From an uncultured Candidatus Saccharibacteria bacterium (lineage in GTDB: Bacteria; Patescibacteriota; Minisyncoccia; UBA6257; UBA11618), in the NCBI GenBank assembly GCA_964373915.1, contig CAYJWP010000002.1, forward strand, positions 4,312-68,311: 64,000 bases of DNA, in the 5' to 3' direction. Below the pieces are notes generated by a model that worked only from the letters and a program-made list of their open reading frames with translations, was not told the origin of the DNA and did no database searches. Every line of letters starts with the position of its first letter. Position 1 is the first letter of the stretch. Positions 39,499 through 61,731 of this stretch are shown piece after piece. A program made the position numbers and the translations under genes.

Positions 39499-39512
39499 TT
39501 CAACTTCAGATA

Positions 39513-42500: not shown

Positions 42501-45500
42501 AGCAATGTGGGGACCCACAGAACATTGGTATGTGGTATTGGGTTGGAGCTTTATGGTAACGGCGGCCGCTCCACTGCCGTCGGTAGTGCCCTTCTTAACA
42601 ATCGGAGCGGAGAACTGGAAATCAAAGCCTCCGGCGGAACAGAAGACATCAAAATCTGTGGCGGCCGGACCACCGGTAACATTTACTGTCAGAGTTTTAC
42701 CGGTGGTACTCAAATCAACCATTTTAAAATCAATATCTGTCTTATTGCTGTTACTGATATTAACCTGTTTAAATTGTCCGCCACCGCCAAGATTGCCTAA
42801 AGCCGTTGCGTCTTGGCCAAAACTTAACATTACTCCATAGTCGCCGTTATTTAGACTGCCGAATGAATAATCACCGTTGGCGTCGGTTTTTGTCTCAAAA
42901 CGTCCCATGCCCATAAAGGAATCAAGGAAGACTGTTACGCCAGCAATACCGGTATCACCCTCAGCGCAAGCTCCACCGGAAGTTGATGATTTACAAACTG
43001 TTCCAGAAATGGTGCGGCTACCGGCAGTAAGAATATCAAAAGGGGCAAAGTTAACAGTTTGCCCTACTTTTGTTCCGTTAGCGTCTTTTACTATAGCGGT
43101 CACACTTTTTTCTCCGGCGGTGGCAGGATTTTTAATGCCTTTTAACTCAAACATAAGCTGATCTCCTGGAAGCATTACGCTGCCAGTGTGGGTTAGTGTA
43201 ACAGTAAATGTTCTAGCGGCCGCATTGGTTGAGGTAGCGGTAATCGTGGTTGTGCCGGGACCCCAGCCATTGACGTCCTTGTTATCCCATGATTCGGTTG
43301 CTGGAACGACGTTAGCGTTAGTCAGGTCAAATCCAGTAGGAAAAGTGAAAATTACTTGGGCCCCGGTGGTAAGAGCGGCTGGCGCAGGAAATTCACAGCG
43401 GAACTTTCCTGTTTGTTCGGGCAAACGGTTATAAGGGTCACACCTTTCCGGACTTGTCCAGAAATTACCGAAGTTTTTTTGGTCAAAGGTTGGCATATCG
43501 AAACCGCCAAAAGTTCCTCCTTTAGAAGCATCAAAAACAGTACCGCGTCCGAAATCACCAGCACCGGGCACGATTGAGAGCGAGCCGCTGGATTCTTTAA
43601 CATTTTTAACAGTAACCTTAAATTCGGTATTGGGCTGGAAACTTAAACCAGTAACCTCAACAGCCCTGGCTTCGGGACGGGCAGAAAAGGTAGCGCTATT
43701 TAGGTCTATTTTAGTGCCAATGGGATTTTCTACCGTGTAATTTTGCTTATTAATGGCGCCGAATGGACCACCGGTGAAATCAACCGATTGGTCAAATTCA
43801 ATCCACATTCTGTAAGTATCAGCGTCAGCGAACATAACTGTCGGCGCTGTGGCGGTGAAGGCGGCGTCAACAGTGGTGAAACAACTGGTGGCATCTGAAG
43901 CAAAGGCGTTGCCCGTTACATCTTTAACGCCGGTGGTTGCCTTAACACAATATTTGGTGTTTTGGTCTAAGAGCATTTGCAGTCCGACATTAGCGCCAAA
44001 AGATGTTGGGTTGTATTTGAGATTGGCTGTTATAGCCGTCTCGGCTCCGTTGAGCGTTCCACTGGCGTCAGAGTCTTTCCAGAAGATTATGTTACTGGCA
44101 GTCAATGTGGTAGGATCTATAGCTTCGGAGAATTGGGCGAAAATGGAAGGAATGTTCCTTGCTACGCCGGTGGCGTTGGTCTTAGGGTCAACAGAAGTTA
44201 CAGTTGGCGCAGTGACATCAGCGGTGGCGCCAGTGGTGAAGAATAAAATATAGTCTGCCGTTCCGGTTCCGCCAAAACCTAAGCCAGCAACATTAACAAC
44301 ATTTTTCTTAATAGTAAGAACATGTGCTTGATTAGCGGCTAGATTAGCAGCCGGGTCTATTTTTAATAACTTATTAGTAGCGTCCCAAGTTAGGGTGGCA
44401 GCAAGGGCGCTTCCTGACGGAGAGCCAAGAGCGGCTGCTTGGAGGAGGACATTATTGGCGTTGTTAATAGCGTTAGCCGTGCCGTCAGCTAACATATTGC
44501 CAGAATCGCCAGCGGTAAATTGGATATATAAATTGCCGTTGGGAGAAAAACTGGCAGAACCGCTAGACGGAGCGGTGCTTTCTATAGCGGGGGGCAGTTT
44601 AACGTTGGTGGGGTCGTTGGAGCTGGTGCTAAAAGAAATGGTTGAGGTGGCGGCTAGGGCGTTACCGGCCAGGTCTTTAAGGCCGGTGCCGATAGTGACT
44701 ACATAAGTAGAGTTGGGAAGCAGATTAGCTGGAGCGTTATCAAGGCGCAAAGCGGCGCTATTAATAGCGGCGCCTAAGGAGGCAAAGTGGAAGTCATAAC
44801 CGCTTAGGTTGCCCAACGCGCCAGCAGTAGCATGGCCGAAGACGATGTCGCCATCAGACAGGACTGTGGAGTCGGTTACGGCGCCTTGGGCAACCGGTGT
44901 TAACTTACTCATTTGAGTGTTAGCTGCCACACGCGAGTTGGCTGCGGTTTTGCCATCTACAGTGGCAGTTCCTTCAGTGGAATCAGAGGACATATCGCCG
45001 GCGCCTGTCACTATATGCCAGCCATAGCCAGTAGCGCCTGTTAATTGGGCATAAACCATATCACCAACGGAAACCGCCAGAGTTCCGCCGTTAGTAGCGC
45101 CGTTATCGGTAGCGGTAGCGGACGGGGTAATAGCAGAAAAACTGGAACCGGTGCTGAAAGTAGGAGCGGCGCTGCCAACTCCGCTAACACTGGCTAATCT
45201 CAAATCAGCGTTATTAACAGCGGCGCCGGCAGTAGCGATAGCCCAACCATAAGTGTCCCAATTGTTGGAACTAGTGTCGGGATTGGCGCTGGAACTAACT
45301 AAAAGAATATCACCGGTAGAAATGCTTGTAGTTCCGGTGACAACACCGGTGGCATTAGGAGTGGCAATTTTAATTACTCTTTGAGGGCCGTAGAGAGGGA
45401 AATTATTAACAGCGAAGGTGCCGCCTGTCTTAGTGGCGTTAGTTACAATACCGATTTCAGCGGGCATATTTTCATGCTGAAAGAGTACTATATCACCGGC

Positions 45501-46433
45501 GGCGAAAGTGGCGTTGCAGTCAAAGCCGACCGCTATATTATGTTGAAAGTTGGCGAAGCAGTTGGTAGGGCTCCATGGTTTGCTCCAGCGGGTGGAGGCG
45601 GCCCATGCGGGGGCGCCCCCCGACGGCACCAGGTCAAAACCGTTGGGAAAGCGTTTTAAACTAAAAGGCACAGCGGAAGCGCTTCTAGTAAAGGTAATAT
45701 TTGCTGGATTAATCGTTGTCGGATCCATATCGCTGGCGTCAGTGAAATTGGCGTTAAAGAAGGAGCCAAGAGGAACATTGGTATCGCCATTTTTAGGAAA
45801 GGTGCTGGCAGTGTTGAGAACAGGAGCTGTGTTATCAACCACGTGGCTGGTTGTTCCGGTAAGAGCGGTGGTGGTTATAGCAGAGCCGGTTACGGTGATA
45901 CCGTTAGTGGCGACATCCATTTTAAATTTACGGCCTTCGGTAGGGCTTGCCGCTAAAGTGCCCACTACAAAATAAGTGGTGGCGCTGGCTGATCCTGACA
46001 GAGCGTTAGTGCCCGTGGTGATGGTGGTTGCGCTACCGACATTGACAGTGGTCTGGGTGCCGAGCAATGTATCAGTGCCGGCAGAGAATATTCCGTCGCC
46101 ATTGTCTTTGTAAACAGATAAGCTGGCAAAATCGGCGGCTGTAATAGCGGGGGAACCTGCGATGACAGTTACCGCAACGCTGTCTAATGTGTCATCAGAG
46201 ACAGCGTCAGCGTCTTTGAGGCCGAATTTAACGACCGCAAATACGGCGGCCGATTTATGTCCGACTGCTGGGCGAAATTCAACATCCGCCGGCTGGGCGG
46301 TAACGGTTGCGTTACCAGTGGCGGCTTTTGCCGGTAGCAGATAAGCGGTAAGACTTAATAAAAAAATGACAGCGAAAATTGCTGTCCGAACAACCGACCT
46401 ATTATAAAAACGACCGATAAAACTATTTTCCAT
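39513..46433 (-). CDS. Giant secreted surface protein (2306 aa), Thr/Gly/Ala/Ser-rich, with Ig-like/FN3/carboxypeptidase-regulatory-like repeats; candidate S-layer or surface glycoprotein
   Basis: Signal peptide (MENSF...LLPAKA|ATG). FN3-like segment PSTPTGLTATVISGSQINLAWTKSSGATGYNIYRT...TYYYTLSALNNSGES. CarboxypepD_reg-like segment TISGTVCKSS...KTDANGDYSF. GGGGGGG linker. Amphipathic C-terminal tail. Confidence 0.8.
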   Translation of the reverse strand: MENSFIGRFYNRSVVRTAIFAVIFLLSLTAYLLPAKAATGNATVTAQPADVEFRPAVGHKSAAVFAVVKFGLKDADAVSDDTLDSVAVTVIAGSPAITAADFASLSVYKDNGDGIFSAGTDTLLGTQTTVNVGSATTITTGTNALSGSASATTYFVVGTLAASPTEGRKFKMDVATNGITVTGSAITTTALTGTTSHVVDNTAPVLNTASTFPKNGDTNVPLGSFFNANFTDASDMDPTTINPANITFTRSASAVPFSLKRFPNGFDLVPSGGAPAWAASTRWSKPWSPTNCFANFQHNIAVGFDCNATFAAGDIVLFQHENMPAEIGIVTNATKTGGTFAVNNFPLYGPQRVIKIATPNATGVVTGTTSISTGDILLVSSSANPDTSSNNWDTYGWAIATAGAAVNNADLRLASVSGVGSAAPTFSTGSSFSAITPSATATDNGATNGGTLAVSVGDMVYAQLTGATGYGWHIVTGAGDMSSDSTEGTATVDGKTAANSRVAANTQMSKLTPVAQGAVTDSTVLSDGDIVFGHATAGALGNLSGYDFHFASLGAAINSAALRLDNAPANLLPNSTYVVTIGTGLKDLAGNALAATSTISFSTSSNDPTNVKLPPAIESTAPSSGSASFSPNGNLYIQFTAGDSGNMLADGTANAINNANNVLLQAAALGSPSGSALAATLTWDATNKLLKIDPAANLAANQAHVLTIKKNVVNVAGLGFGGTGTADYILFFTTGATADVTAPTVTSVDPKTNATGVARNIPSIFAQFSEAIDPTTLTASNIIFWKDSDASGTLNGAETAITANLKYNPTSFGANVGLQMLLDQNTKYCVKATTGVKDVTGNAFASDATSCFTTVDAAFTATAPTVMFADADTYRMWIEFDQSVDFTGGPFGAINKQNYTVENPIGTKIDLNSATFSARPEARAVEVTGLSFQPNTEFKVTVKNVKESSGSLSIVPGAGDFGRGTVFDASKGGTFGGFDMPTFDQKNFGNFWTSPERCDPYNRLPEQTGKFRCEFPAPAALTTGAQVIFTFPTGFDLTNANVVPATESWDNKDVNGWGPGTTTITATSTNAAARTFTVTLTHTGSVMLPGDQLMFELKGIKNPATAGEKSVTAIVKDANGTKVGQTVNFAPFDILTAGSRTISGTVCKSSTSGGACAEGDTGIAGVTVFLDSFMGMGRFETKTDANGDYSFGSLNNGDYGVMLSFGQDATALGNLGGGGQFKQVNISNSNKTDIDFKMVDLSTTGKTLTVNVTGGPAATDFDVFCSAGGFDFQFSAPIVKKGTTDGSGAAAVTIKLQPNTTYQCSVGPHIAFESFNNGGPPPVPIFTFMPPPPKTVAVASADLSIAFALKTTDQEIKIKVTDGATGIANVYVDAFPIGGKGVDSSTGALVEMMGSFAQTKSDGTAVLKITTGTYRVTACSPGMPCSGDNVVDVKANSSNTDGNTAADVYKDGTLLTGDGLTIKLAKSGVTIAGQLQDENGNSLKYGFVDAQRVTSGDTCSNFTPTGGFAGSPTDSNGNYTVYMPPGYESGATTWRLAGFAPAYGEVGCKIITMSGTSKTGQNIAVTAADFGKVKITATKGGTAVEGAFVGCYGPNGGNHGKTGTDGTVTLTMKTGTYTCDGNLPGAGPLAQQTGVAVTSGATTDTTLAVGNPGTVTVILGATVTSAFCSAVDSSGRGAFAKYEGSSLSLKVPAGTYNVQCNNEGIGQIFSSSTVVTAGQTNSIDKTSVVPTLYTVTGEIEDSTGTNIQGATVVFSDQSNGRKSFVTTSGATGANTNVSVSLPAGTYSVQSLKSGFTDNTNSTGRPETLVVSADTTLTKRSLAQNSADNVSITVKEGSSTTNYGGEAKVIATRASDGKVIFDDIDRTATSTANASMSLPAGTWTVEVKSDDGRQDGTPATVVVAANNIANSSPTLNIDTSIPGFSSATTTKKSFIPSVGGTIIDDNIAGLAVELDVTDANDSTSGTLEMKKAPQIAFSTSESKVVGTTGYSITPTNSSGKEVHDATGIVKLPITTADLATAGFATSTAAQILAAGDKVRISKLNDLGAWEDLATTFVKDANGTDKHLLIAKTDSFSDFAPTVAAADAPSTPTGLTATVISGSQINLAWTKSSGATGYNIYRTTNNSLAIADFPRVGSDPTVGDVSTYSNTGLNSGTTYYYTLSALNNSGESAAITTKVSAKTNSGGGGGGGLITGPVIVAPAATIPTEVAAKVAQADMATGAIDSSKADIASVASTSANKYGSMSVTDLTAEVTKVVKAISELAKGNAITAEVKSSAQAAVKNLLIGLIQATIKKIQLRLSELMTVY

Positions 46434-48479: not shown

Positions 48480-48562
48480 AGCGCCTCCTTTATTAAAGAG
48501 CCAGATTAGGATAGTATAAAAGCCGCTCTTTGGCAATCCGCCAGCTGGCGGAGGAGGGAAAT

Positions 48563-50173
48563 ATGAGACAGAACTATGATGTTGTTATCGTCGGCGGAGG
48601 CCATAATGGACTTGTAGCCGCATGTTATCTAGCTAAAGCCGGTTTATCCGTTCTCGTTTTAGAACAAAATATTCGTTTGGGAGGAGCGGCCGCCGGCAGG
48701 AAGATGTTTGCTGGAATTGAGGCAGATATTCCCGAATATGCTTATTTGGTGAGTTTGTTTCCTCGGCAGATTGCTGAGGAACTAGTACTTAATTTTTCCA
48801 CAAAGAAAAGAGCGTTTGATTCGTTTACGCCTTATTCCAGGAGGGGAATTTATCAGGGCTTGTCCATTGGGGAGGATCAAGTTTTAACTAAAGAATCTTT
48901 TATTAATTTGACGGGTGATGAGTCTGAATACGAAGCTTTCCAGCGTTTTTCCGAAATGCGCCGAGCTTTTGCGGGCATAGTCTGGCCTACTCTACTTGAG
49001 CCGCTAATGTCAAGGGAGGCGATAAAAAGAAGATTTAGAAGTCCTGTGGAGAAAAAAGCATGGCAGTCTTTTGTGGATTGTGCCCTGGGCGAATGCATTG
49101 AGAGATTTTTTAAAGATGATTTGGTGAAAGGGCTGGTTTTTACTGATGCTAAAATAGGCGTTTTGACCAGAGGTTATGATTTGAATTTTGTTCAAAATAA
49201 AACCTTTATCTACCACATTATCGGCGGCGGAAATGGCAAGTGGCTGGTGCCGGTCGGAGGAACAAAGGCGCTAGTCGGCGAGCTAGGGGCGGCGGTGGAA
49301 AAACTGGGCGTTGATGCTTTATTGAACGCCAAAGTTTATAAAATTGAATTTGATAAGGGGATTTGGGCGGTTAAAGCTGATGTTTTAGGAGAAGGGAAAA
49401 AAATGGAGTTTGGGGGGCGGTTTCTGCTGGCTGATGTAGCCCCGAAAATTCTTTATCGCCTGATAACCGGCGATAACAGCCAATTAAAAGGCAGAAAAGT
49501 GATTGAAGAGGGTTCTTTCTTTAAAATAAACATGCTGGTCAGGCGCCTGCCGAGATTTAAGGCGCTGGCCCACTTGCAGGAGGATCAGCATATAAATGTG
49601 GGATTTTCCGGCACCATTCATATTAACGAGAGTTGCCAGAATATGGAAGAAAGTTACTGGGATGCCAAGGCGGGATTTTTTCCAGAAAATCTCCCGTTTG
49701 AGGTCTACTGCCACACTTTATCAGATCGGAGCATATTTCCTCCAGATTTAAGCGAAAGCTCCTGCCAATCCTTATCAATTTTTGCTTTGGATACGCCTTA
49801 CAGTTTGTTTAGAAACAAAAAATTAACCAATAATGAAGCGGCGCAGAGCTGTCTGCGGGCGTTCAATCGGTACCTGATTGAACCTCTGGAAGAATTACTT
49901 TTGGCGGACGGAAATGGCCGGCCCTGTCTCCAAACAAAAAGTCCGGTAGAAGTTGAAAGAGAATTAGGCATGCCTTTGGGAAACATTTTTCATCGGCCGC
50001 TCCAATGGCCCTTTGCCGAAAAGGAAGAAGAGATTGGCCGGTGGGGGGTGGAGACGGAGTTTGAGAATATTTTTATCTGCGGCGCCGGCGCCAAAAGAGG
50101 CGGAGGTATCAGCGGCATTCCGGGCAGGAATGCGGCGATGGCAGTGTTAGAGCAGTTCAAAACCCCCGCTTAG
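48563..50173 (+). CDS. FAD-dependent oxidoreductase (phytoene desaturase/amine oxidase CrtI-like family)
   Basis: DVVIVGGGHNGLVAACYLAKAGLSVLVLE dinucleotide-binding motif. GGAGG SD before the ATG at 48563. Confidence 0.7.
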   Translation: MRQNYDVVIVGGGHNGLVAACYLAKAGLSVLVLEQNIRLGGAAAGRKMFAGIEADIPEYAYLVSLFPRQIAEELVLNFSTKKRAFDSFTPYSRRGIYQGLSIGEDQVLTKESFINLTGDESEYEAFQRFSEMRRAFAGIVWPTLLEPLMSREAIKRRFRSPVEKKAWQSFVDCALGECIERFFKDDLVKGLVFTDAKIGVLTRGYDLNFVQNKTFIYHIIGGGNGKWLVPVGGTKALVGELGAAVEKLGVDALLNAKVYKIEFDKGIWAVKADVLGEGKKMEFGGRFLLADVAPKILYRLITGDNSQLKGRKVIEEGSFFKINMLVRRLPRFKALAHLQEDQHINVGFSGTIHINESCQNMEESYWDAKAGFFPENLPFEVYCHTLSDRSIFPPDLSESSCQSLSIFALDTPYSLFRNKKLTNNEAAQSCLRAFNRYLIEPLEELLLADGNGRPCLQTKSPVEVERELGMPLGNIFHRPLQWPFAEKEEEIGRWGVETEFENIFICGAGAKRGGGISGIPGRNAAMAVLEQFKTPA

Positions 50174-50186
50174 GCGGGGGATTTTT
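50163..50186. terminator. Bidirectional rho-independent terminator between convergent genes
   Basis: aaaacccccgc-ttag-gcggggg-attttt. Confidence 0.65.
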
Positions 50187-50964
50187 AGCTAGCGATGACC
50201 TCCTCCACCGGTTCTCCGGGGAGGCTGTTGTTGATTTCTGTAAGCCAATTTTCAACTCCATCAAGAAAAGGACCAAGTTCAGAAACGTATCGTTGTTGTT
50301 CTTCATATGTACGTAACCCACTAAGCGGGCACGCGATTATGCCTCCAGAAGCTAATCTTTCAGCGCCAGCATCGTCATTAAGAGGATTCTTACCCTCTGG
50401 GTATATACTGTAAAAGAATTGAGGCCATTCATTACCAAGATCACCGAGCAGAGGATAAGCGTTGAATTTCGGAGGAAGGGCATCGGAAGGCAAGCCTCCT
50501 TTTAAAGAGGAGTTTGACATTTCTTCTCCCAGCGGCGATACAATATTGGTAAAAGATGGAACACCCGCAGAGGCGATTTTATTGGCATCTTCACCCCTAC
50601 TTAATGGTTTAATAGTCGGATCTGGCCGAGTACGGGGACCAAGGCAAAGAAGTGGTCTATTTCCACCGCTAGGTAACCCAACACAGGAATCATTTTTTCT
50701 ACTTGCCCGAGAACAATATAACCATCTATGCACGGGAAATACTGCAGGTCCTTTATATCTTATGCAGGAGTAATTCCAGCCCGGATCTTTCCTCTCGTAC
50801 GCAGCTTTTATTTTTCTCTCTAATAAATCTCTACAAGTCTTCTCATAAAAACGGCAAACTTGGAGATCAGAAGAAGCCGCAGTCATTCTAGTGTAGAAGA
50901 TAAACAAAACAAAAGAAGCCAGCAGAAACAACATCAAAAGTTTATTTTTATTACTGATAACCAT
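50185..50964 (-). CDS. Secreted Cys-rich protein (member 1 of 4 in a Cys-rich operon)
   Basis: Signal/TM anchor (LLMLFLLASFVLFIF). Many Cys. A 3-nt gap to the upstream gene. Confidence 0.5.
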   Translation of the reverse strand: MVISNKNKLLMLFLLASFVLFIFYTRMTAASSDLQVCRFYEKTCRDLLERKIKAAYERKDPGWNYSCIRYKGPAVFPVHRWLYCSRASRKNDSCVGLPSGGNRPLLCLGPRTRPDPTIKPLSRGEDANKIASAGVPSFTNIVSPLGEEMSNSSLKGGLPSDALPPKFNAYPLLGDLGNEWPQFFYSIYPEGKNPLNDDAGAERLASGGIIACPLSGLRTYEEQQRYVSELGPFLDGVENWLTEINNSLPGEPVEEVIAS

Positions 50965-50966
50965 AA

Positions 50967-51593
50967 TTATCTATTAGTCTCTTTCTCTAATTCTTCGACC
51001 TTCTTTTCAAGCGTTACGAGTTCTTCTTCGGCATTTAAAATCTCATCCTCACCAAATAAAGATCTTTGTATTCTGCTAATTCTGGGTAGAATATCTACGG
51101 TTAAATCTTGACTTAACTCCTCAATCATGTGAGAAATAGCCACTAGCGTGTCAAGGGGATAAATAGCTAAAGGATCGCCCGAATTAAGAGCGCAGTTACC
51201 AATATTGCAAAGAGGATTGCTACAGGATACGGGGAGAGCCGGAGCCAGAGCGCAATCGGCCACTTCGGGATGAGCTAGGCAATAGTCGTAGCCGCAGGAG
51301 CCGGCTAACTCTATCTTCTCGCCAATATCTTGGCAGGGGCCGGAGTTGCAGTAGCTGGCGTAGCAAGAGACGATAACCGGGACGCGGTCGCAGGCATCTC
51401 CATCGGCGCCGGTGAAGTCTTGGCAGGCATCGTAATAACAGGTATCGGCATCTTCTATAACCGCTCCCAAACCCGCCGCCTGGGGCTGGGTTTGCGGCCT
51501 GATAATACCCATAAGCAATAAGACAACTATAGCAAGAACAGCCACTATGAGAACTGTCCAGAATATTTTTGAAACGTTCATTGTTTTAATCAT
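50967..51593 (-). CDS. Membrane-anchored Cys-rich protein with C-terminal coiled-coil (member 2)
   Basis: N-terminal TM helix. VSCSNPLCNIGNC motif shared with member 3. C-terminal EEELVTLEKKVEELEKE coiled coil. Confidence 0.55.
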   Translation of the reverse strand: MIKTMNVSKIFWTVLIVAVLAIVVLLLMGIIRPQTQPQAAGLGAVIEDADTCYYDACQDFTGADGDACDRVPVIVSCYASYCNSGPCQDIGEKIELAGSCGYDYCLAHPEVADCALAPALPVSCSNPLCNIGNCALNSGDPLAIYPLDTLVAISHMIEELSQDLTVDILPRISRIQRSLFGEDEILNAEEELVTLEKKVEELEKETNR

Positions 51594-51600
51594 AACACTA

Positions 51601-52590
51601 TTAATTGCATACTACTTCTCCGCAGGTGCTCAAAGAAGCGCCACTAGGCAATGTCTTTACAAAGGGGCCTACATAACGGCACCCGGCAGGGGGAGGAGCG
51701 CACGAACCGCCAGCGGAAAGACCACCACCGTCTTTTTGGGACAACAGGGCGTCAATTCTTGCCTGAAGGGCGGCGATTTGTTCCCGAAGCGCATTTATAA
51801 GACTTTCTCCAAGGGGGCTAGGAAAAGGATCGGGAGATATTTTTGGCCGGCACCAGGTGAGTTCGTTGTTGTCTTTGTTAGCGTTAACACAGGATTCACT
51901 ACTGCAAAGCACTAATCCTGGAAATCGGCTACAAACAAAGTTGGATTTAGGGCAAGTTGACCCAAGAATGCAGTATAATTCAGATGGCGGAGGTGGTGGT
52001 GGCGGAGATATGGGCGGCTGACCGATAGGAGTACAGATAAATCCCGGCACTGTTTTAGCAAGACATCTTGGATTGTTACAGCTGATTACTATGGGAAAAA
52101 TCAGCGGACAACCCCCCGGTTTGTCTTCGCACAAAGAACGATCCACGTCGAAGAGGCACAATTGATCGGTGGGGGGCGGGGGGGTTGTAGGGCCACAAGA
52201 CCAGTTAGGAGCGGGAAAATCTCGCTTACACTGCTCACAAGAAACAGAAAGGAATCGGCAGGGCGGTCCAAGGAAACCTGGACCATCAACCAGACAAAGT
52301 TTACAAGTCTCTCCGGGCACCGGAACTGGCACCGGCACCGGCACAGGAAATGGCCCTCCTGTTGCTTTCACACACTTGCCATTAACATAATCGCAGTCGG
52401 GGTTACTCTCACAAATCTGTCCTCTTCGGGGATCGGGAATACCCATTAAGTTAACGTTAGCGCACTTATCTTCTCTAGCATGAAACGCCTGTGGCTGGAC
52501 CGAGGGGGAGATTAACGCAGGTACAGAAACCAAAACCAGCAGGCCGGCTAGGATGCCCAGTAACAACCAGATTGCCTTTAAATTAGTCAT
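51601..52590 (-). CDS. Secreted Cys/Pro-rich protein with PVPVPVPVPVPG and PPPPPPP tracts and a C-terminal coiled-coil (member 3)
   Basis: Signal peptide. About 30 Cys. ISCNNPRC motif. LINALREQIAALQARIDALL coiled coil. Confidence 0.55.
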   Translation of the reverse strand: MTNLKAIWLLLGILAGLLVLVSVPALISPSVQPQAFHAREDKCANVNLMGIPDPRRGQICESNPDCDYVNGKCVKATGGPFPVPVPVPVPVPGETCKLCLVDGPGFLGPPCRFLSVSCEQCKRDFPAPNWSCGPTTPPPPTDQLCLFDVDRSLCEDKPGGCPLIFPIVISCNNPRCLAKTVPGFICTPIGQPPISPPPPPPPSELYCILGSTCPKSNFVCSRFPGLVLCSSESCVNANKDNNELTWCRPKISPDPFPSPLGESLINALREQIAALQARIDALLSQKDGGGLSAGGSCAPPPAGCRYVGPFVKTLPSGASLSTCGEVVCN

Positions 52591-52594
52591 AGTT

Positions 52595-53446
52595 TTATGA
52601 TTGTAATAATCTTAATCTTTCCTGAAGAGCTTCAATTTGTTTTTTAAGCCTAGCTAGTTCTGTCGCCAACGATGAGTCGTTAATTTGTTGTTTCCTGACG
52701 GCTGCTCTAGCTTCCAATCGTGAAAGTCCTGGCAAAACACTGTCGCGGAGTTGTTCTCTTAACAAAACTAATTGCTTAGACATATTGTCTCCACCAGCCC
52801 GCATTCTCTCTCTGGTTTGGCGGTTGTTGGCGCGGGGGACATCTCCCATCGAAAAAGCGGGGCTATCAAACCCGGCGGTGGAGCAGATATCGTTCTGCTT
52901 ATAGCCACTCTTAGAGTCCACACAAGAGCCATTTTGACTACCGCCTATAAGCAGCCAGACGCATCCTAAAGATTTTTTCTGAGCGCATCTTTCCTTTTCT
53001 AGATTAACGAGCGTGCATTTACCTGAAGCCTCAACCCAGTGGCAGACTTCCCGTCCGCGGCGGCGAGCTTCAAAATCAGACATATTTAACTCACTAGAGG
53101 TAAGAGGGCGCTCGCATTCATCTTTTGTTCTGGCAGTCGTGCATCTTAGTTGCATGAAAGTAACGCTAGAACCGCTTATCCCACCAGGTCTACTTACCTG
53201 TTGTTCTTTTGGTGGTCTCGAGGGAGCGCTGTTTCTTTGAGGAGTAGGTTGTCTGCGTGAGCATCGGATTTTTGCTGCGTCTTGGCATTTTTGAACTTCG
53301 GCTTTACTTTGAGCAGATTTTAAACAGGAGGGATCAGGACGGCATACATGCACAGCCAGAGCTCTGGGCGGGTAAATAAGGAGAGCGGCAAGGACGATTA
53401 AGGCAAAAATAAAAACGAGAGAAAAAGAGAAACTTAATTGTTTCAT
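52595..53446 (-). CDS. Secreted Cys-rich protein with C-terminal coiled-coil (member 4)
   Basis: Signal peptide. Multiple Cys. LVLLREQLRD ... LKKQIEALQERLRLLQS coiled coil. Confidence 0.55.
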   Translation of the reverse strand: MKQLSFSFSLVFIFALIVLAALLIYPPRALAVHVCRPDPSCLKSAQSKAEVQKCQDAAKIRCSRRQPTPQRNSAPSRPPKEQQVSRPGGISGSSVTFMQLRCTTARTKDECERPLTSSELNMSDFEARRRGREVCHWVEASGKCTLVNLEKERCAQKKSLGCVWLLIGGSQNGSCVDSKSGYKQNDICSTAGFDSPAFSMGDVPRANNRQTRERMRAGGDNMSKQLVLLREQLRDSVLPGLSRLEARAAVRKQQINDSSLATELARLKKQIEALQERLRLLQS

Positions 53447-53495
53447 TACCTTTATTTTATCATCCGCAGATTTTTTAAGGCAAGACTAAAGTTAT

Positions 53496-55073
53496 TCACA
53501 CCTTTTTTCCGGGATTAAAAATGTTGTTCGGGTCAAATATTTTTTTAGTTTCTTTGAAGAGTTGGCAGACCTCCCCGCCGAACATCTCTTTAAGGTATGG
53601 AGTGCGGATGAGGCCGTCGTTGTGCTCGGCGGACATAGAGCCGCCAAAGGCAAAGACCAACTGATAAACTTTTTTAGAGAGAGTTTTAATAATTTTTTTA
53701 GACAGGGGATCGGTTAAGTCCATTAAAGGGATGATGTGGAGGTTGCCGTCGCCGATATGGCCGACGATGGTGTATTCAAAATCATACCGGCTAAGGATTT
53801 TTTCCAGTTGAGGAAGAAATTGAGGCAGTTTTTCTGGCCGGACTATTAGGTCGTCAATAAAAGGCGCCGGCTTCTTGTCTTGGAAGTGGCCGCGGAGAAG
53901 ATTAAAACTCTCGCGGCGCATCAGCCAGTATTTTTCGGTGTCTATGCCGGGCCGAGCAACGCGGGCGGGCAATCCCATCTTTTTAATTTCTTTAAGAGCG
54001 TCAGCGGCTGCCATTTTTACCTGACTGTCGGAGTTAGCGGCAAATTGGGCAATCATTACCAATTTAGGGAAGCCTCCCTGCAGAAACATTAAAGATTCGG
54101 GCAGAAAGCGCCAGAAATGCTTCCACATCAAGTAGCGCAATGCCAGCTTCATAGTGTAATTATCAAAAAACTCAAAACTTTCCGGTTTTAGGCGGAGGAT
54201 TTTTTCTGCAATTGCAGGAATCAGGGAGATATCTTTAAGAAAAATAATCAGCAGGCGGGAGTTTCTTTGAGGTTTGATAAGGCGAAATTTAATCTCGGTG
54301 ATGACGCCGAGAGTGCCTTGAGAGCCGGTAAAAAGCCTGGTCAGGTCAAAAGTTTTGCCGTCCCAGACATTCCAAAGAGCGTAGCCGGAGGAGTTTTTGG
54401 AGACTTTAGGCCGGGCATTTTTTAGCAGTTTATAGTTGGCAGTTAGCAATTTGTGGAGCTGGCGGTAAATTTCTCCCTCAAAATCACTCTGTTTAATTTT
54501 CTTATCTAACTGCTGTTTACTAAGGGGTTTAATGGCGTATTCGTTGCCATCGGAGAGGACTACTTTTAATTTCCGGACAAAGTTTTCAGTCTTGCCGTAA
54601 GCGAGAGTTTTCTCTCCGCCGGCATTGTTGGCGACCATGCCACCGATAGCGCAAATTTCGCGGGAGGAGGGATAGGAGGGGAGAAGCAGATTTTTTGCTA
54701 ATGTTTTTTTTTCAAAATCGCGGTAGTAGACTCCCGGCTGGGCGATGGCATAGCCGCCCCGCTGGCTGGCGGAAACTTTTTTTATCTTGTTAAAATACTT
54801 GGTGAAATCCAGAATAATTGAGTCGTTGAGGGGGCCGCCGGTCATATCTGTGCCGGCGGAGCGGGCGGTAAGGGATAATTTATAATTTCTAATTTTGAAT
54901 TTTGAATTAATGAATTTAACCAGATTTTTTATGTCAGAAACTGATTTGGGGGCGATGACCAGTTGCGGCTTTACCTGGAAGATACTGGCGTCGCGGCTAT
55001 ATTTTTCCAGAGTTTGCCGGTCGCTGTAGACCTTCCCCCGAACAATTTTTTGTAATTCTTTTTTAAGGCTCAT
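53496..55073 (-). CDS. FAD-linked oxidase (PCMH-type FAD-binding; GlcD/D-lactate dehydrogenase-like)
   Basis: ARSAGTDMTGG FAD-binding motif. Start moved to the Met at 55073 (MSLKKELQKIV), because a hairpin occupies 55100-55135. Confidence 0.7.
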   Translation of the reverse strand: MSLKKELQKIVRGKVYSDRQTLEKYSRDASIFQVKPQLVIAPKSVSDIKNLVKFINSKFKIRNYKLSLTARSAGTDMTGGPLNDSIILDFTKYFNKIKKVSASQRGGYAIAQPGVYYRDFEKKTLAKNLLLPSYPSSREICAIGGMVANNAGGEKTLAYGKTENFVRKLKVVLSDGNEYAIKPLSKQQLDKKIKQSDFEGEIYRQLHKLLTANYKLLKNARPKVSKNSSGYALWNVWDGKTFDLTRLFTGSQGTLGVITEIKFRLIKPQRNSRLLIIFLKDISLIPAIAEKILRLKPESFEFFDNYTMKLALRYLMWKHFWRFLPESLMFLQGGFPKLVMIAQFAANSDSQVKMAAADALKEIKKMGLPARVARPGIDTEKYWLMRRESFNLLRGHFQDKKPAPFIDDLIVRPEKLPQFLPQLEKILSRYDFEYTIVGHIGDGNLHIIPLMDLTDPLSKKIIKTLSKKVYQLVFAFGGSMSAEHNDGLIRTPYLKEMFGGEVCQLFKETKKIFDPNNIFNPGKKV

Positions 55074-55097
55074 TAACAGAATTTTAACACAAAACAC

Positions 55098-55135
55098 AAA
55101 CCCCGCACCTTTGTGGAATCTTAAGGCGCGGGGTT
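55098..55135 (-). terminator. Putative terminator/attenuator hairpin downstream of the small-protein genes
   Basis: ccccgcacc-(15 nt)-ggcgcgggg stem followed in minus sense by a U-rich tract. Confidence 0.35.
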
Positions 55136-55161
55136 TATTATTCACCGAGTAAATTTTTACT

Positions 55162-55394: not shown

Positions 55395-55691
55395 TTAAAG
55401 ACCGCTGTCAAGAGCCTCTAGGTCTGTTTCGTTGAGGTCTGCCTCAATGGCGGCCACATCATCAGAGGTTCTTATTCGGCTTAAATCTTCAGTTAGTTGG
55501 TCGGGGGAATACGCGGCATCCACACCGGCTTCTTGAAGGGCCTGTTTCTCCGCTTCGGTGAATTCCACAGCATCAAGTTCCTCTCCAACACCGATATATT
55601 CCTTGCCGTACCAATTTCGGCTGAAGAAGAAGGCGCCGGCGGCTATCGCTAGAATGACGACTGCTAAAATAATTATTTTGTTTTTGCTCAT
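55395..55691 (-). CDS. Small membrane-anchored acidic protein
   Basis: One N-terminal TM helix (IIILAVVILAIAAGAFFF) and an acidic C-terminus. Confidence 0.4.
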   Translation of the reverse strand: MSKNKIIILAVVILAIAAGAFFFSRNWYGKEYIGVGEELDAVEFTEAEKQALQEAGVDAAYSPDQLTEDLSRIRTSDDVAAIEADLNETDLEALDSGL

Positions 55692-55697
55692 ATTTTT

Positions 55698-56543
55698 TTA
55701 GTTATTATTAGTGCTGGTAGCGGTGCTGGTGGCATTTTCATCATCCTCGTTGTCGTTACCAGCCCCCTTAAGAAGGTCCTTTATTTTTTGGACGATGTCT
55801 TGGAATTTTTGTTTAAGGGTTTTAATATCATCTTTTAGCTCTTTGGCTATAGCTTTAGCTTCGGCGGTAACTTCTTCCGCGCTTTTCTTGGCGTCCAGAT
55901 AAGATTCAAACTTCTGGCGTAAGGCGTCTATTTTAGCGTCAATGGCAAGCTTGGAATTCTTAGCTTCCTCCATCAAAGGGGTGATACTGGAAACATCTAT
56001 GCCCCTTTCTTGCATTTTTTTCAGTCGAGCCTCAATTCTTTTGGCAATGTGGTCAAAACGGGCGGCGGCATGGCGGAAGCGAAACAAGATTTTCATTGCT
56101 TTACGGTGGGCGTGAACCATGCGGGCGCTGTCTTTGGCCGATTCAACCTTCTCTCTAAAAGTGCTGCGCAACTCTTCTTTTCTGGCTTTAAAGGCTTCTT
56201 TTAGCTCCTCTTGTCCTTTTTTAAGCTCTTCCCTTTTAGCTTTAAATTCCTCTTTTATTTTTTCCCTCTCTTCTTTAGCTAAGTTAGAAAAGTCTCTAAA
56301 CTTGCCGGAGGTTTCTTCTTGTAAAGCGCGGCGTTTTTCTTCTATATCATCTATGAGCAATCGGTGCTTTTCTCGAAATTCGTCCCTTTCTACTTTTAGC
56401 TCCTTTCTTTGAGCTTTAACTTTTTCTTCAAGAGCTTTGCGGGCTTCAGCGTTTTCTTTTCCATGGTCGGCTAGAGCGACCGAGGAAAACAGAGCGACCG
56501 ATGTAATGAGGGCTGTAACAGCCATTTTTTTAGCGTTTTTCAT
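55698..56543 (-). CDS. Secreted Lys/Glu-rich coiled-coil protein
   Basis: Signal peptide (ALFSSVALA). Long KE-rich heptad-like region. Thr/Asn tail. Confidence 0.5.
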   Translation of the reverse strand: MKNAKKMAVTALITSVALFSSVALADHGKENAEARKALEEKVKAQRKELKVERDEFREKHRLLIDDIEEKRRALQEETSGKFRDFSNLAKEEREKIKEEFKAKREELKKGQEELKEAFKARKEELRSTFREKVESAKDSARMVHAHRKAMKILFRFRHAAARFDHIAKRIEARLKKMQERGIDVSSITPLMEEAKNSKLAIDAKIDALRQKFESYLDAKKSAEEVTAEAKAIAKELKDDIKTLKQKFQDIVQKIKDLLKGAGNDNEDDENATSTATSTNNN

Positions 56544-56602
56544 AGTGATTTTGATGGTAGCAGATTGCTAATTTAATTTCAATAGAACGATAATAATGCT
56601 AA

Positions 56603-56630
56603 AAAAGCCCCGAGAAGCTCGGGGCGGGGT
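56603..56630 (-). terminator. Rho-independent terminator
   Basis: gccccgag-aagc-ctcggggc followed in minus sense by TTTTTT, directly after the stop at 56633. Confidence 0.7.
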
Positions 56631-56632
56631 TT

Positions 56633-57223
56633 CTAATAATTTTCCAGAGTTTTTTCCAGCTTTTCTTTAAGAAATCTTATTTCAGACAACTCAATAAAAG
56701 CATTATCAAGACTGGCCGGGCTACCGAGGCAACGAAATCTGGCGTTGTTTATCATTCTGGTCAGGTCGGCGCTTACTTTTCTAGCTCCCAGCTTGACCAG
56801 CCACTGGTCATCAGGCACCTTCTCCAGTTTTTTGGGGATGGCGTCTAGGTCCTTGTCGGTGTTGGCCAAAAATTGGAGAAGCACCTCGTACTCAATCCCT
56901 CTTTCTTTAAAATCAGGATTGGTCAGCCAATTAATCGCCACTTGGGCTCTTGCCAGCTTTTCTGTGATAATAATTTCATAATCGCGGAAGTCGGGGCAGG
57001 ACAAGCGCTGTTCAGCTTCGCTGATTTGCAGGCTGGTCTGGCCTAGATAGACGAAGAAGAATTCTGAAAAGGCGGGGAAGCGGGAATTTGCCCGCTGGCT
57101 TTTTACTTCTTGGGCAAGATTAGCCGTTATTTTTTGATATACCTTCGGAGCGTCGGTCGGCCCAACGCCGGCAGAAGTAATAATTGCTAAAAATGCCGTT
57201 AAACTCACCAACAAAGCTTCCAT
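56633..57223 (-). CDS. Secreted hypothetical protein
   Basis: 196 aa with a signal peptide and a terminator immediately downstream. Confidence 0.45.
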   Translation of the reverse strand: MEALLVSLTAFLAIITSAGVGPTDAPKVYQKITANLAQEVKSQRANSRFPAFSEFFFVYLGQTSLQISEAEQRLSCPDFRDYEIIITEKLARAQVAINWLTNPDFKERGIEYEVLLQFLANTDKDLDAIPKKLEKVPDDQWLVKLGARKVSADLTRMINNARFRCLGSPASLDNAFIELSEIRFLKEKLEKTLENY

Positions 57224-57873: not shown

Positions 57874-58224
57874 ATGATTAAAACTATCTCTCCTATTTTT
57901 CTCTCCCGACTGGCTTTGGCATTTGTTTTTCTTTACGCGGCCATCTCCTCGCTGGCCGATCCCCTAAGCTGGGTGGGTTTTTTCCCTGCTTGGGTCGGGG
58001 CCTCTAATTATTCGTTGGCCTTTTTTTCAATTGGGGAGGGCTTGCTTGCCTTATGGCTAATCTCCGGCAAAAAGGGATTTTACGCCGCCATCGCCGCGGC
58101 TGTGGTTTTGGCGGTTATCGTCCTTACTAATTTAGAATCAATGATTATTGTTTTTCGCGACGTTGGCCTTTTCTTAGCGGCTTTATCTCTGGCGGTTTTG
58201 GAGAAGAAAGCTGATAATTTATAA
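57874..58224 (+). CDS. DoxX-like small membrane protein
   Basis: 116 aa, 3-4 TM helices. Architecture typical of the DoxX family. Confidence 0.4.
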   Translation: MIKTISPIFLSRLALAFVFLYAAISSLADPLSWVGFFPAWVGASNYSLAFFSIGEGLLALWLISGKKGFYAAIAAAVVLAVIVLTNLESMIIVFRDVGLFLAALSLAVLEKKADNL

Positions 58225-59916
58225 AACTGTAAAAATATTAATCCCCTCTACGCGGCCCTTAACTTGGGCGGAGCCCAAAGATTTAAATTGGTAAGCGCCT
58301 TTGATTTTTTTGACAGTCGGTTCGCCGATAATAATAGAAGTTTGGTACTCCTTATTTAAGCTCTCAAGGCGGGAGGCGACATTGACCGTGTCGCCGATGG
58401 CGGTGTAGTCAAAGCGCTGGCTGGAACCCATGTTGCCGACGATAGCCGGGCCGGAGTAAAGGCCGATGCCAATAGCGATTTCTATGCCGATTTCTTTTTT
58501 AAGAATTTGGTTGAACTCCTCCACTTTCTTAATCATGCCCAGAGAAGCTTTCAGGGCTTTTTCGGCGTGGTCGGGGTCGCTGAGCGGCGCTCCCCAAAAA
58601 GCCATGACGGCATCGCCAATATACTTATCCACAACTCCGTCGTTTTTGAGAATTTCTTCGGTGACCGATGTAAAATAGCGATTGATGATATCCACCAGCT
58701 GGTGGGGGCTGGTTTTTTCAGAGAGCGAGGTGTAGCCGCGGATGTCGGAGAACAGGACGGTAATTTCTCTCTCTTCTCCGCCCAGCGCCACTTTTTGCGG
58801 ATTTTGCAGTATCTGCTCCAGCACCTCCGGGGAGACATATTTGCCGAAAACTCCCCGCATCTCCCTTTTTTCTTTATCAACTATTAGATAGCGGAAAATA
58901 ACCAAAGCGATAGTGGAGAGAATCCAAGCAAGATGAATGTGGATGATGTTAGCCGCTATGCCTTGCTGGAAGAGTATAATTTGAGCGATAAGATAAAGAA
59001 CGCCTGCCCCGACGGAGGCAAAAACAAAACTATTAATGGAGCGCAGTTTTAAAGAAAACACTACGGGCATAAGGATGGCAAAAAGGAGCCAGAGATAGGC
59101 GAGCGGGCTAGTGAGAGGGCGGAGGCGATAGCCCATAATGAGCATGTTAGCGATATTGGCATGGATTTCCACACCCGCCATTTCTTCCCCTTTGGAAAGG
59201 GGCGTGGGGCGGCTATCGTGCAGGTCGGGGGCGGTGGCGCCGATGAAAATTAATTTATTACTTAACTGATCGGACAAATCCTCCTCAAATAATCTCCAGA
59301 AAGGGATAGCCCTAACCGAACGGGGAGGGGCGGCGTAAACAATACGATTAATTTCCCCAAGGTTTTGTTCTTGGGGTATTTTTTTGCCAGCGGCTTTCAG
59401 AGCAGAGTAGCCAAGCGAATAAACGCCGTTCTCTGTTCTTAAAGGAAAATTTCTGACAATGCCGTCTTTGTCCTGGATGGTGTTGATGTAGCCGAGAGCG
59501 GTGCGGCCGGTGAATTGAGGCAGGGGACGAGTGAAATTGGGCCCGATTTTTTCCAAGGGCATTACGATTGGAAAAAAGGTTGAGCTCAAAACATTGGAAA
59601 GATAGTAATCATCCTGCGGCCCGAGCCGAGAAGGTTCGGAAAAAATGACATCAAAAGCGACAGCGGCCGGCCTGCTTTGATTTATTTTTAAGAGGGCGCT
59701 GGCAAAAAGGCCGCGAGGCCAGGGCCACTGGCCGAGGCGAGACAGGGACTCATTGTCAATGGCAATAATAAGGATATCCTGATGGATGGGTTTATTAGAA
59801 AACAGTCGGTCTTCAAGAAAATTTTCCAATCCGGAGAAAAGGCCAGCGGAAAAAGAGGCGAAAACTATTAAAAATACTATAAAACTGACCAGACAATATC
59901 CTTTTAAGTTTTTCAT
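58219..59916 (-). CDS. CHASE2 sensor domain-containing class III adenylate/guanylate cyclase
   Basis: N-terminal TM plus extracytoplasmic domain. TM bundle. C-terminal VLFSDIRGYTSLSE ... KYIGDAVMAFWGAP cyclase homology domain. Confidence 0.8.
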   Translation of the reverse strand: MKNLKGYCLVSFIVFLIVFASFSAGLFSGLENFLEDRLFSNKPIHQDILIIAIDNESLSRLGQWPWPRGLFASALLKINQSRPAAVAFDVIFSEPSRLGPQDDYYLSNVLSSTFFPIVMPLEKIGPNFTRPLPQFTGRTALGYINTIQDKDGIVRNFPLRTENGVYSLGYSALKAAGKKIPQEQNLGEINRIVYAAPPRSVRAIPFWRLFEEDLSDQLSNKLIFIGATAPDLHDSRPTPLSKGEEMAGVEIHANIANMLIMGYRLRPLTSPLAYLWLLFAILMPVVFSLKLRSINSFVFASVGAGVLYLIAQIILFQQGIAANIIHIHLAWILSTIALVIFRYLIVDKEKREMRGVFGKYVSPEVLEQILQNPQKVALGGEEREITVLFSDIRGYTSLSEKTSPHQLVDIINRYFTSVTEEILKNDGVVDKYIGDAVMAFWGAPLSDPDHAEKALKASLGMIKKVEEFNQILKKEIGIEIAIGIGLYSGPAIVGNMGSSQRFDYTAIGDTVNVASRLESLNKEYQTSIIIGEPTVKKIKGAYQFKSLGSAQVKGRVEGINIFTVL

Positions 59917-59923
59917 TTTTATA

Positions 59924-60940
59924 TCAACCTCGACTGTCTATTTTTTGAGGTACAAAACCAACAACCTCAAAAAATGGGCTTTGGGCTGTGAATTCTTTGC
60001 CGGTGGCGGAATCTTTCCAACCGACGGCTACAGCCCCTTTGGAGGCGCCTAACTCGGAAACTTCCGGAGCTAATTTAGCGATAAAAGCGCCGGGTTTTTC
60101 AAAGAATCCTATCGGACCGATAACCTGCCATTGGGCGGCAGCGGTAATAATTTTTCTCGAGCCATCGCTATTAACCAGAATTGCGTCAAACAATAGGCGG
60201 TCGTTTTCCACCACTCTTCCAAGATTTGCTTGGGTTTCCAGAATTATTTTTACTGGGGTAGTGTTTGCTATCGTATCAACTTTAGAGGGAACGGCGGCGA
60301 TTTTTTTAGCGACAGTTTCCGGGGTGATTTCAATTTGGTCGCCGGCGGTGACCAGTGTTTCGGTGCCGGGTATTACCTTTCCGGTTGCTGGATTAACAAC
60401 GGAAACAAAGACCGAGTCTTTGACGACTTTTATGTCGGACTTGCCGTTGGCGTAAGCGACACTGAATTCGGTGCCGCGGACGACCGCGACAGCGTTGGGA
60501 GTTTTAACTTCCCATGAGGATTGGGGAGTGGCTAGGGCAACAACTTTGGAAAGTATTTTGCCGGAGTTGATGAAAATACTAACCACTAAACTTTTATCGG
60601 ACTTACCGTAAGAGCTGTTTTTGATAATAAAAGAGGTGTTGGGTTCTATGTAGGCGGCGGAGCCGTCGGCGAAATGCAATTCTCCCACGCCAGCCTCTCC
60701 GGTTTTGACGGTTTGCCCCTCGTTTAATTCGTCTCCGGTGCGGAGTTCGCGATCGCTTTCCGTAACGCGCGGCTTAAAAACTTCTATCCAAGGCTTAGTG
60801 GAGGCTTGTTGATTTTCAATTGGATTGGTTGTGGTTGAGGGGGCTGAAGCGGAGTTGATAAAATAGTAGCCGGCGAGAAAAACAACAAACAAAATTGCTA
60901 AGGCGGTTAAGAGCCTTAACTTAAGAATTTTTGCAAACAT
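59924..60940 (-). CDS. FecR-domain protein (periplasmic, N-terminal anchor)
   Basis: VVRGTEFSVAY FecR signature. N-terminal TM. Confidence 0.65.
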   Translation of the reverse strand: MFAKILKLRLLTALAILFVVFLAGYYFINSASAPSTTTNPIENQQASTKPWIEVFKPRVTESDRELRTGDELNEGQTVKTGEAGVGELHFADGSAAYIEPNTSFIIKNSSYGKSDKSLVVSIFINSGKILSKVVALATPQSSWEVKTPNAVAVVRGTEFSVAYANGKSDIKVVKDSVFVSVVNPATGKVIPGTETLVTAGDQIEITPETVAKKIAAVPSKVDTIANTTPVKIILETQANLGRVVENDRLLFDAILVNSDGSRKIITAAAQWQVIGPIGFFEKPGAFIAKLAPEVSELGASKGAVAVGWKDSATGKEFTAQSPFFEVVGFVPQKIDSRG

Positions 60941-60948
60941 AATATGGC

Positions 60949-61731
60949 TTAATTAGCCCAGATAACAAAGGTGAAGACTTTGTCTCCTTTGCCGAGATTC
61001 TTGACGTGGAGAGAAGACTTGCCGTCGGATGATCTTTTGATTTCCCTACCCCACTGGCTGGGATGATCAAGGTCGGCGCCCCCGTTGCTAGTCGGCTCTT
61101 TACTGCCAATAGTGGTAATGGAATCAAGGTGGGTATAAATAGTTTCTAACTGGTCATAATCATGCAAGTTAGGATGTTCGTTTAAACCGCTGGGGTTGTT
61201 GGTGTAATCCATACAGGTGCCGAGATTGGCGTTGGTAAAAACTTCATCTTGATGGTCAAGACCGAAAGTGTGGCCGACCTCCTGGCACATAACAAAGTTT
61301 CTCCACTCGGGCTTGTTATAGGTGGCGGTATTGAAATAAGTGTCGTTAAGCTTGACAGTGCTTTGAGTGATGTGGTCGCCACTAATCCAAATACTGGCTA
61401 CCCCCAGCCAGCCGTTGAAGCCATACCTGCTGCTGCAGACCTGAACTCCGCCCTTGACCGGCTTGCAGTTCTTGGGGTTGATACTGCCGGAAACGACAGT
61501 AGTGTCCAATGCGTTGGATAAACTCCAATCGCTAGAGGCGGTTGCTAAAAAGGAATCCCAATTAGCGGAAACATTATCGCTTAATTTTAAATTAAAGGGA
61601 TTGGCTGTTCTGGACCAGTGGTAAACGCCCCAAGAGTGACTGGCATAAGCGATCATGCCGCCGAAGCTGGCGACTACCAAAACTACCGCCGAAACGACTA
61701 AAAAATAACCGAAAATAGAAATTCTTTTCAT
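60949..61731 (-). CDS. Secreted zinc metalloprotease, metzincin (M10/M7-like)
   Basis: Signal peptide. HEVGHTFGLDH (HExxHxxGxxH) followed by a Met-turn region. Confidence 0.7.
   Translation of the reverse strand: MKRISIFGYFLVVSAVVLVVASFGGMIAYASHSWGVYHWSRTANPFNLKLSDNVSANWDSFLATASSDWSLSNALDTTVVSGSINPKNCKPVKGGVQVCSSRYGFNGWLGVASIWISGDHITQSTVKLNDTYFNTATYNKPEWRNFVMCQEVGHTFGLDHQDEVFTNANLGTCMDYTNNPSGLNEHPNLHDYDQLETIYTHLDSITTIGSKEPTSNGGADLDHPSQWGREIKRSSDGKSSLHVKNLGKGDKVFTFVIWAN

Follow-up and report, generated by a model that had tools for sequence, protein, structure and literature searches.

An orphan operon of cysteine-rich exported proteins in a member of the Patescibacteria

The 64,000-nucleotide stretch of DNA analysed here, hereafter the window (positions 4,312 to 68,311 of contig CAYJWP010000002.1, from an uncultured Candidatus Saccharibacteria bacterium), carries on its minus strand four consecutive genes for exported proteins, three of them exceptionally rich in cysteine (Cys); we call the genes A, B, C and D. 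We conclude that they constitute a true orphan operon coding for Cys-rich exported proteins. As a tentative reading, we propose that its products may form a lineage-specific surface assembly of an episymbiotic member of the Candidate Phyla Radiation (CPR), stabilised by disulfide bonds and devoted to attachment or to envelope architecture. The candidate role in cell-cell or host contact that a first-pass annotation of this DNA had suggested would fit CPR biology.

The organism belongs to the Patescibacteria/CPR: a genome-collection scan with the FAD-linked oxidase encoded just upstream of the operon recovered 43 best relatives, almost all of which carry CPR lineage labels (Saccharibacteria, Paceibacterota, Azambacteria, Daviesbacteria and others). 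The closest of these oxidases is 59% identical to that of the window, and the 43 loci that encode them constitute the set of related CPR loci used for comparison throughout.

Gene organisation and probable transcription unit

In order of transcription, the four open reading frames (ORFs) are:

52595..53446 (-), gene A, 283 aa, first
51601..52590 (-), gene B, 329 aa, second
50967..51593 (-), gene C, 208 aa, third
50185..50964 (-), gene D, 259 aa, last

The first-pass annotation counted by plus-strand coordinate, and its members 1 to 4 correspond to D, C, B and A. The limits that it gave for the set, 50185-53446, are exact, and the spacing that it put at 3-8 nt was measured as 4 nt between A and B, 7 nt between B and C, and 2 nt between C and D. 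All four genes start with ATG. Upstream of A, at a distance of 49 nt, lies the FAD-linked oxidase gene (53496-55145). Two putative regulatory elements flank the set:

53454..53483 (-), promoter-like site in the 49-nt gap 5' of A (TTGCCT, 18 nt spacer, TG-TAAAAT), from a consensus scan only
50163..50180, hairpin CCCCCGC-TTAG-GCGGGGG, with a perfect 7-bp G+C stem and T-runs on both strands

The hairpin begins four bases past the stop codon of D, between this gene and the convergent gene 48530-50173, and to judge from its sequence it is likely a bidirectional intrinsic terminator serving both the four-gene unit and its convergent neighbour. Together with their close spacing, the promoter-like site on one side and the terminator on the other make A-D look like one transcription unit.

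Public NCBI-derived records use shorter starts for two of these genes, giving a B of 247 aa that begins MPVPVPV and a C of 192 aa. An in-frame AGGAGG (codons aca-gga-ggg) precedes the annotated GTG start of B, which lies in a PV-repeat region and would remove both the membrane helix and a module of four Cys. This annotated start is probably wrong, and the ATG located 4 nt past the stop codon of A is more plausible.

The GC content of the operon ranges from 0.43 to 0.51. It had been described as the highest outside the giant gene at 39513-46433, which does not hold, as the segment 63001-64000 reaches 0.51. GC at third codon positions (GC3) is ordinary in B (0.44), and the high GC of this gene is due to its proline (Pro), glycine (Gly) and Cys codons. 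Horizontal transfer, considered on the grounds of GC content, was rejected, since GC3 is ordinary and amino-acid composition accounts for the raised GC.

Export segments and cysteine content

Each of the four proteins opens with a strongly hydrophobic segment, in agreement with the signal peptide or N-terminal anchor predicted for every member. The maximal mean Kyte-Doolittle hydropathy over 19 residues is 2.2-3.3 in A-D and stays below 1.3 in most cytoplasmic enzymes of the window. The high Cys content reported for the set is likewise borne out: A has 12 Cys in 283 residues (4.2%), B 26 in 329 (7.9%), C 12 in 208 (5.8%) and D 7 in 259 (2.7%). The 26 Cys of B replace an earlier estimate of about 30. 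Background values are 0.99% in the other ORFs of the window and 0.96% in 706 ORFs of the related CPR loci, so that A-D contain 3-8 times as much Cys as the background. Furthermore, at least 3.5% Cys combined with a hydrophobic N-terminus occurs in only two of these 706 ORFs, and a succession of three such genes is therefore not a matter of chance.

Three signals typical of bacterial surface proteins were looked for in A-D and not found. The class III pilin signal (regular expression G[FMIVL][TS][LI][IVL]E) is absent, and no N_methyl or pilin match was obtained in Pfam or NCBIfam. Sortase signals are absent too, the only candidate strings (LPSGA, LPSGG and VPRAN) being internal and followed by no hydrophobic segment, and the C-termini are polar. 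There is no N-terminal lipobox, and lipobox-like strings occur only deep in the mature proteins (positions 74, 168 and 209).

A six-cysteine module common to B and C

B and C each contain two copies of a module of 35-42 aa with six Cys, spaced C-x4-8-C-x6-10-C-x8-9-C-x4-C-x4-12-C around a conserved core P-(V/I)-(V/I/L)-(S/L)-C, of which A and D have none:

52033..52158 (-), copy B3, residues 145-186 of B (CLFDVDRSLCEDKPGGCPLIFPIVISCNNPRCLAKTVPGFIC)
51850..51972 (-), copy B4, residues 207-247 of B
51333..51440 (-), copy C1, residues 52-87 of C
51192..51296 (-), copy C2, residues 100-134 of C, which holds VSCSNPLC

The motif (I/V)SC(N/S)NP(R/L)C that had been noticed in these two proteins, as ISCNNPRC in B (169-176) and VSCSNPLC in C (122-129), is present in both and lies inside the module in each case. 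As the six-Cys pattern was defined post hoc, it was cross-validated with hidden Markov models (HMMs), the copies of C being used against B and those of B against C. This gave p ~0.01-0.02 on the best-domain score, and the full-sequence score was not significant. By eye, B and C also have a common layout, with an anchor, a P..QPQA motif, Cys modules and a helix.

Kinship beyond this pair is not apparent. Pairwise BLAST among A-D gave nothing significant, and shuffle-controlled Smith-Waterman comparisons of the Cys-rich parts yielded low z values (B-C 2.1, B-D 3.0, A-C -0.8). The z of 4.0 found for the whole ectodomains of A and C arises from their helical tails, and the string L..LREQ(L/I) common to the helices of A and B is too short to evaluate. 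The initial description of four paralogs thus shrinks to one pair, B and C, which to judge from their sequences are probably distant paralogs at a statistically marginal level. Cys spacing, whose conservation among the paralogs had been in question, is preserved between these two and is not in A and D, and our sequence-based conclusion is that A and D would be either unrelated to the others or diverged past detection.

Individual proteins and their predicted structure

Protein A begins with a Sec-type signal peptide (residues ~1-31, ending ...PRALA|VH) that looks cleavable, and all of its 12 Cys lie within residues 35-188. The mature protein is highly basic, with an isoelectric point (pI) of 9.7 and a net charge of +17, and ends in a basic helical tail. 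This tail shows a weak, non-significant likeness to vimentin coil segments (E 0.1-0.6 in a search of PDB sequences).

Protein B, with its 26 Cys and 50 Pro, is the most elaborate of the four. Its N-terminal helix, an anchor or signal (residues 4-25 in the AlphaFold2 model), is followed by five Cys modules with 4, 6, 6, 6 and 4 Cys, between which lie the linkers (PV)5, TPPPP and P7 and a single helix of 28 residues. After this helix comes a C-terminal mini-domain of four Cys (297-329). The two tracts reported earlier for this protein, PVPVPVPVPVPG and PPPPPPPS, are both present.

Protein C carries a long N-terminal membrane anchor helix (residues 7-27, AlphaFold2), a QPQA motif as in B, and its two six-Cys modules. 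In its mature form it is strongly acidic (pI 4.1, net charge -22). Protein D has a signal peptide (~1-30), six Cys in residues 37-107 and a seventh at 212, and a C-terminal half that is acidic and rich in Pro and Gly.

The linker and helical features are:

52598..52783 (-), C-terminal amphipathic helical tail of A, residues 222-283 (LVLLREQL ... ELARLKKQIEALQERLRLLQS), best heptad window 256-283
52312..52347 (-), linker PVPVPVPVPVPG of B, residues 82-93, an imperfect 6-nt DNA repeat (TRF)
51733..51816 (-), amphipathic helix of B, residues 259-286 (ESLINALREQIAALQARIDALLSQK), from its heptad score and an AlphaFold2 predicted local distance difference test (pLDDT) score of 74-84
50976..51155 (-), 60-residue acidic C-terminal helix of C, residues 147-206, modelled by AlphaFold2 as H147-180 and H182-206 (pLDDT 78-95)

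Coiled-coil tails of the LREQ type had been ascribed to A, B and C. Heptad scoring over at least four heptads supports helices in all three (A 256-283, B 262-286, C 181-208); the LREQ string itself is limited to A (LVLLREQL) and B (LINALREQI). No heptad helix was found in D by the same scoring, and no six-Cys module by pattern search. AlphaFold2, run on B and C without an alignment (mean pLDDT 48.7 and 54.7, respectively), was confident only of their membrane helices and C-terminal helices, and its models agree with the proposed tails in placing helices at B 259-286 and C 147-206.

Search for relatives

The impression that these proteins belong to no known family held up in the searches. A-D have no match at E<=1 in Pfam or NCBIfam and none in PHROGs, and their matches among PDB sequences are non-significant coiled-coil or chance alignments. 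A word-indexed search of 5.8 billion protein clusters with A, B and C returned nothing but the query in each case. For B, a full, filter-free HMMER scan of 1.84 billion representatives returned the protein itself plus one other sequence (E 6e-5), a translated tandem repeat that owes its score to the sum of nine weak matches and was rejected as spurious; a viral scan gave nothing. D is a singleton cluster, with no credible match in metagenome and viral scans or in plasmid and phage tblastn searches. A metagenome match of 34 residues to D, on a high-GC contig (L044), falls outside any plausible gene and was discarded. Beyond the profile libraries and PDB sequences, the scans for D were those of metagenome, viral, plasmid and phage sequences, which makes it a less certain orphan than A, B or C.

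Closer to the host, neither homologs of A-D (tblastn) nor the six-Cys module (module HMM) were found in the 43 related CPR loci, which show no conserved synteny either. As this lineage is sparsely sampled, it is no surprise that fast-evolving exported proteins should lack known relatives.

Comparison with known Cys-rich and surface proteins

A resemblance to Cys-rich extracellular modules of eukaryotic type had been proposed, and in general appearance the module of B and C does recall EGF-like and knottin modules, being likewise ~35-42 aa long, with six Cys, in tandem, separated by linkers and part of an extracellular protein. The proposal is not supported by closer comparison. Unlike EGF, the B/C module lacks a C-x-C pair and has no Pfam match at E<=1. 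In canonical knottins, whose six Cys pair I-IV, II-V and III-VI, the loops are short and the third one comprises 0-7 residues; spacing in the B/C module is close to this pattern, but its third loop, with 8-9 residues, goes beyond that range. Nor do A-D match the Myxococcus-type cysteine-rich repeat, Dickkopf, EB, granulin or other Cys-rich modules in Pfam or NCBIfam at E<=1. As a positive control for these searches, an unrelated CPR protein (L043:3749-4702) does yield weak Dickkopf_N and EB matches.

This control protein, encoded on the minus strand of its locus, and a second one from the comparison set (L013:4829-5452, plus strand) resemble A-D in that an N-terminal membrane helix precedes a Cys-rich ectodomain. 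They differ in having the motif C..DA..CPDGS.V.R.GP.C.F..CP, in being encoded by single genes and in lacking C-terminal heptad helices, and they show no sequence similarity to A-D. The protein of L043 has 21 Cys and a Hint_2 domain (E 2e-7), and is a Cys-rich, possibly autoprocessing surface protein unrelated to those of the operon.

Among the disulfide-bonded secreted proteins of monoderm bacteria, the MdbA/VKOR-dependent proteins and pilins (Actinomyces oris FimA, Corynebacterium) are Sec-exported from a monoderm-type cell, as A-D would be. Both groups would act at the cell surface, and the folding of A-D would likewise require extracytoplasmic disulfide formation. In contrast to these proteins, A-D contain far more Cys per protein, and have neither sequence similarity to them nor a sortase signal or pilin motif.

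Possible functions of the operon

We tentatively interpret A-D as components of a disulfide-stabilised surface assembly. The number of Cys is even in each module of B (4, 6, 6, 6, 4) and in A and C as a whole (12 each), as expected for disulfides formed within modules. Together with the proline linkers and the export signals, these even counts point to small disulfide-knotted beads carried on stiff extracellular stalks. In such an arrangement, B and C would stay anchored in the membrane through their N-terminal helices, B extending as a 'beads on a string' stalk in which knotted modules alternate with stiff proline linkers; D and the very basic A would be set free by signal peptidase. A, B and C may then join through their C-terminal amphipathic helices, and the complementary charges carried by A (+17) and C (-22) would favour a hetero-oligomer. 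Such an assembly would most likely serve an episymbiotic cell for attachment or as part of its envelope architecture. It is plausible that secreted proteins are folded oxidatively in this group, as CPR bacteria are reported to be enriched in an MdbA-like extracytoplasmic thiol-disulfide oxidoreductase that is often encoded next to VKOR (PMC6744442).

A bolder version of this proposal, which we consider unlikely, would have B and C define a bacterial six-Cys extracellular module not seen before and build, together with A and D, a charge-paired, heteromeric coiled-coil surface fibre with which a CPR episymbiont recognises or holds its host. Such an adhesion apparatus would be newly arisen, lineage-restricted and without database counterpart.

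Several observations weigh against a surface assembly. No gene for a disulfide-forming enzyme, MdbA and VKOR included, was found in the 64-kb window. The Cys-rich regions of B and C were left unresolved by AlphaFold2 (pLDDT ~30-40), and the heptad stretches of A and B are short (~25-28 residues). D, having neither module nor helix, would owe its place in any complex to gene adjacency alone. Finally, the lack of homologs means that no conservation, co-variation or phyletic evidence bears on function.

Of the alternatives, the one that fares best holds that A-D are envelope proteins that disulfides between molecules join into a coat-like layer or a sheath, rather than parts of a discrete adhesin. 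A parallel in principle is offered by the CotY, CotZ and ExsY proteins of the Bacillus spore coat and exosporium, which are also Cys-rich, encoded by adjacent genes and assembled through disulfide cross-linking. The analogy is limited by the N-terminal export segments of A-D, since coat proteins have no signal peptides, and sporulation is not known in CPR bacteria. Such a layer would also be consistent with the abundance of Cys, the Pro-rich linkers and the signals for export, and the odd seventh Cys of D (residue 212) could form an intermolecular bond. The even number of Cys per module, however, favours pairing within modules; Pfam places none of A-D in a coat or S-layer family, and a singleton operon with nothing comparable in the 43 related loci would be unusual for a major envelope component. 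On balance we hold this alternative to be doubtful.

A second possibility is that the Cys residues are kept reduced and that A-D are extracytoplasmic thiol proteins active towards metals or in redox reactions, binding Zn, Cu or Fe-S or buffering redox stress. Many CPR bacteria inhabit anoxic groundwater, where thiols could persist, and module 2 of B has a zinc-ribbon-like spacing, CxxC-x18-CxxC. These are, however, the only two CxxC among the 57 Cys of A-D, and CxxCH is absent from all four, which excludes heme c and leaves no general metal-cluster pattern in evidence. Moreover, B and C contain little histidine, which often serves as a co-ligand, and regular six-Cys modules with proline linkers resemble structural disulfide domains. 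A metal or redox function is thus distinctly improbable.

It is very improbable, too, that A-D are secreted effectors or toxins directed against the host or competitors, acting independently and clustered through co-regulation only. Export signals, extreme divergence and orphan status, the latter two typical of arms-race proteins, would agree with this idea. Yet B and C have long anchors that look uncleaved, no enzymatic or toxin domain was detected in A-D with Pfam or NCBIfam, and no small immunity-like gene lies nearby.

Lastly, that the locus is non-functional, being made up of random ORFs or decaying pseudogenes or resulting from an error of assembly, as the lack of homologs and the differing public starts of B and C might suggest, is scarcely credible for four ORFs of 208-329 aa that abut within 2-7 nt on one strand of ~46% GC DNA, each opening with a canonical hydrophobic export segment, with GC3 within the range of neighbouring genes and with a promoter-like site and a strong terminator bounding the set.

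Genomic setting

In keeping with the proposed surface role, the operon lies in surroundings rich in envelope functions, which comprise a 2306-aa surface protein with Big_5, fn3 and SdrD_B domains, a glycan biosynthesis cluster of 39 kb and several further hypothetical proteins with export signals. The giant 2306-aa protein is exported and encoded at 39513-46433 (-), 3.7 kb from the operon, by a gene of 50% GC; it contains Big_5 (three copies), CarboxypepD_reg (two copies), SdrD_B and fn3 domains, and is likely a surface adhesin.

Composition in the window shifts abruptly near 39500, the first 39 kb having ~30-41% GC and the part from the giant gene on, which includes the core gene truB, 42-51%. 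The low-GC part is the glycan cluster, with at least six GT4 glycosyltransferases, an NTP-transferase/HAD fusion, a GHMP kinase, an asparagine-synthase-like gene, a methyltransferase and a Polysacc_synt flippase. This shift could mean either that the glycan cluster is an island of low GC or that the metagenome-assembled genome (MAG) was joined wrongly.

Three more exported hypothetical proteins that match no family are encoded at 55395-57223 (-): one of 98 aa with a transmembrane segment and an acidic part, one of 281 aa with a signal peptide and a K/E-rich, all-helical remainder, and one of 196 aa. The FAD-linked oxidase gene therefore has orphan envelope proteins on both sides. At 58219-60940 (-), a gene with a FecR domain stands immediately upstream of one for a CHASE2 sensor/class III adenylate-guanylate cyclase, and the two are possibly an envelope-signal sensing pair. 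A further exported protein, of 260 aa (60949-61731, minus strand), contains QEVGHTFGLDH, which resembles the metzincin zinc site HExxHxxGxxH with Gln replacing the first His; its matches to Reprolysin_2 and Met-zincin are only sub-threshold (E 0.03-0.07). Next, a saccharopine-dehydrogenase-like gene (61797-62960) adjoins one for a pyruvoyl-dependent arginine decarboxylase (63000-63554), an arrangement that suggests a polyamine biosynthesis pair. The kilobase that holds the decarboxylase gene has a higher GC (0.51-0.53) than any other in the window.

Significance for CPR biology

CPR bacteria rely on physical contact with their hosts, and few of the molecules that mediate attachment are known. 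Extracellular proteins with a high density of disulfide bonds are uncommon in bacteria. At present the operon is a singleton in one MAG, and as such it illustrates the lineage-specific 'dark matter' of surface proteins as well as a probable misannotation of start codons. If it does build a surface fibre, it would represent both a new solution to attachment and a new fold for a small Cys module.

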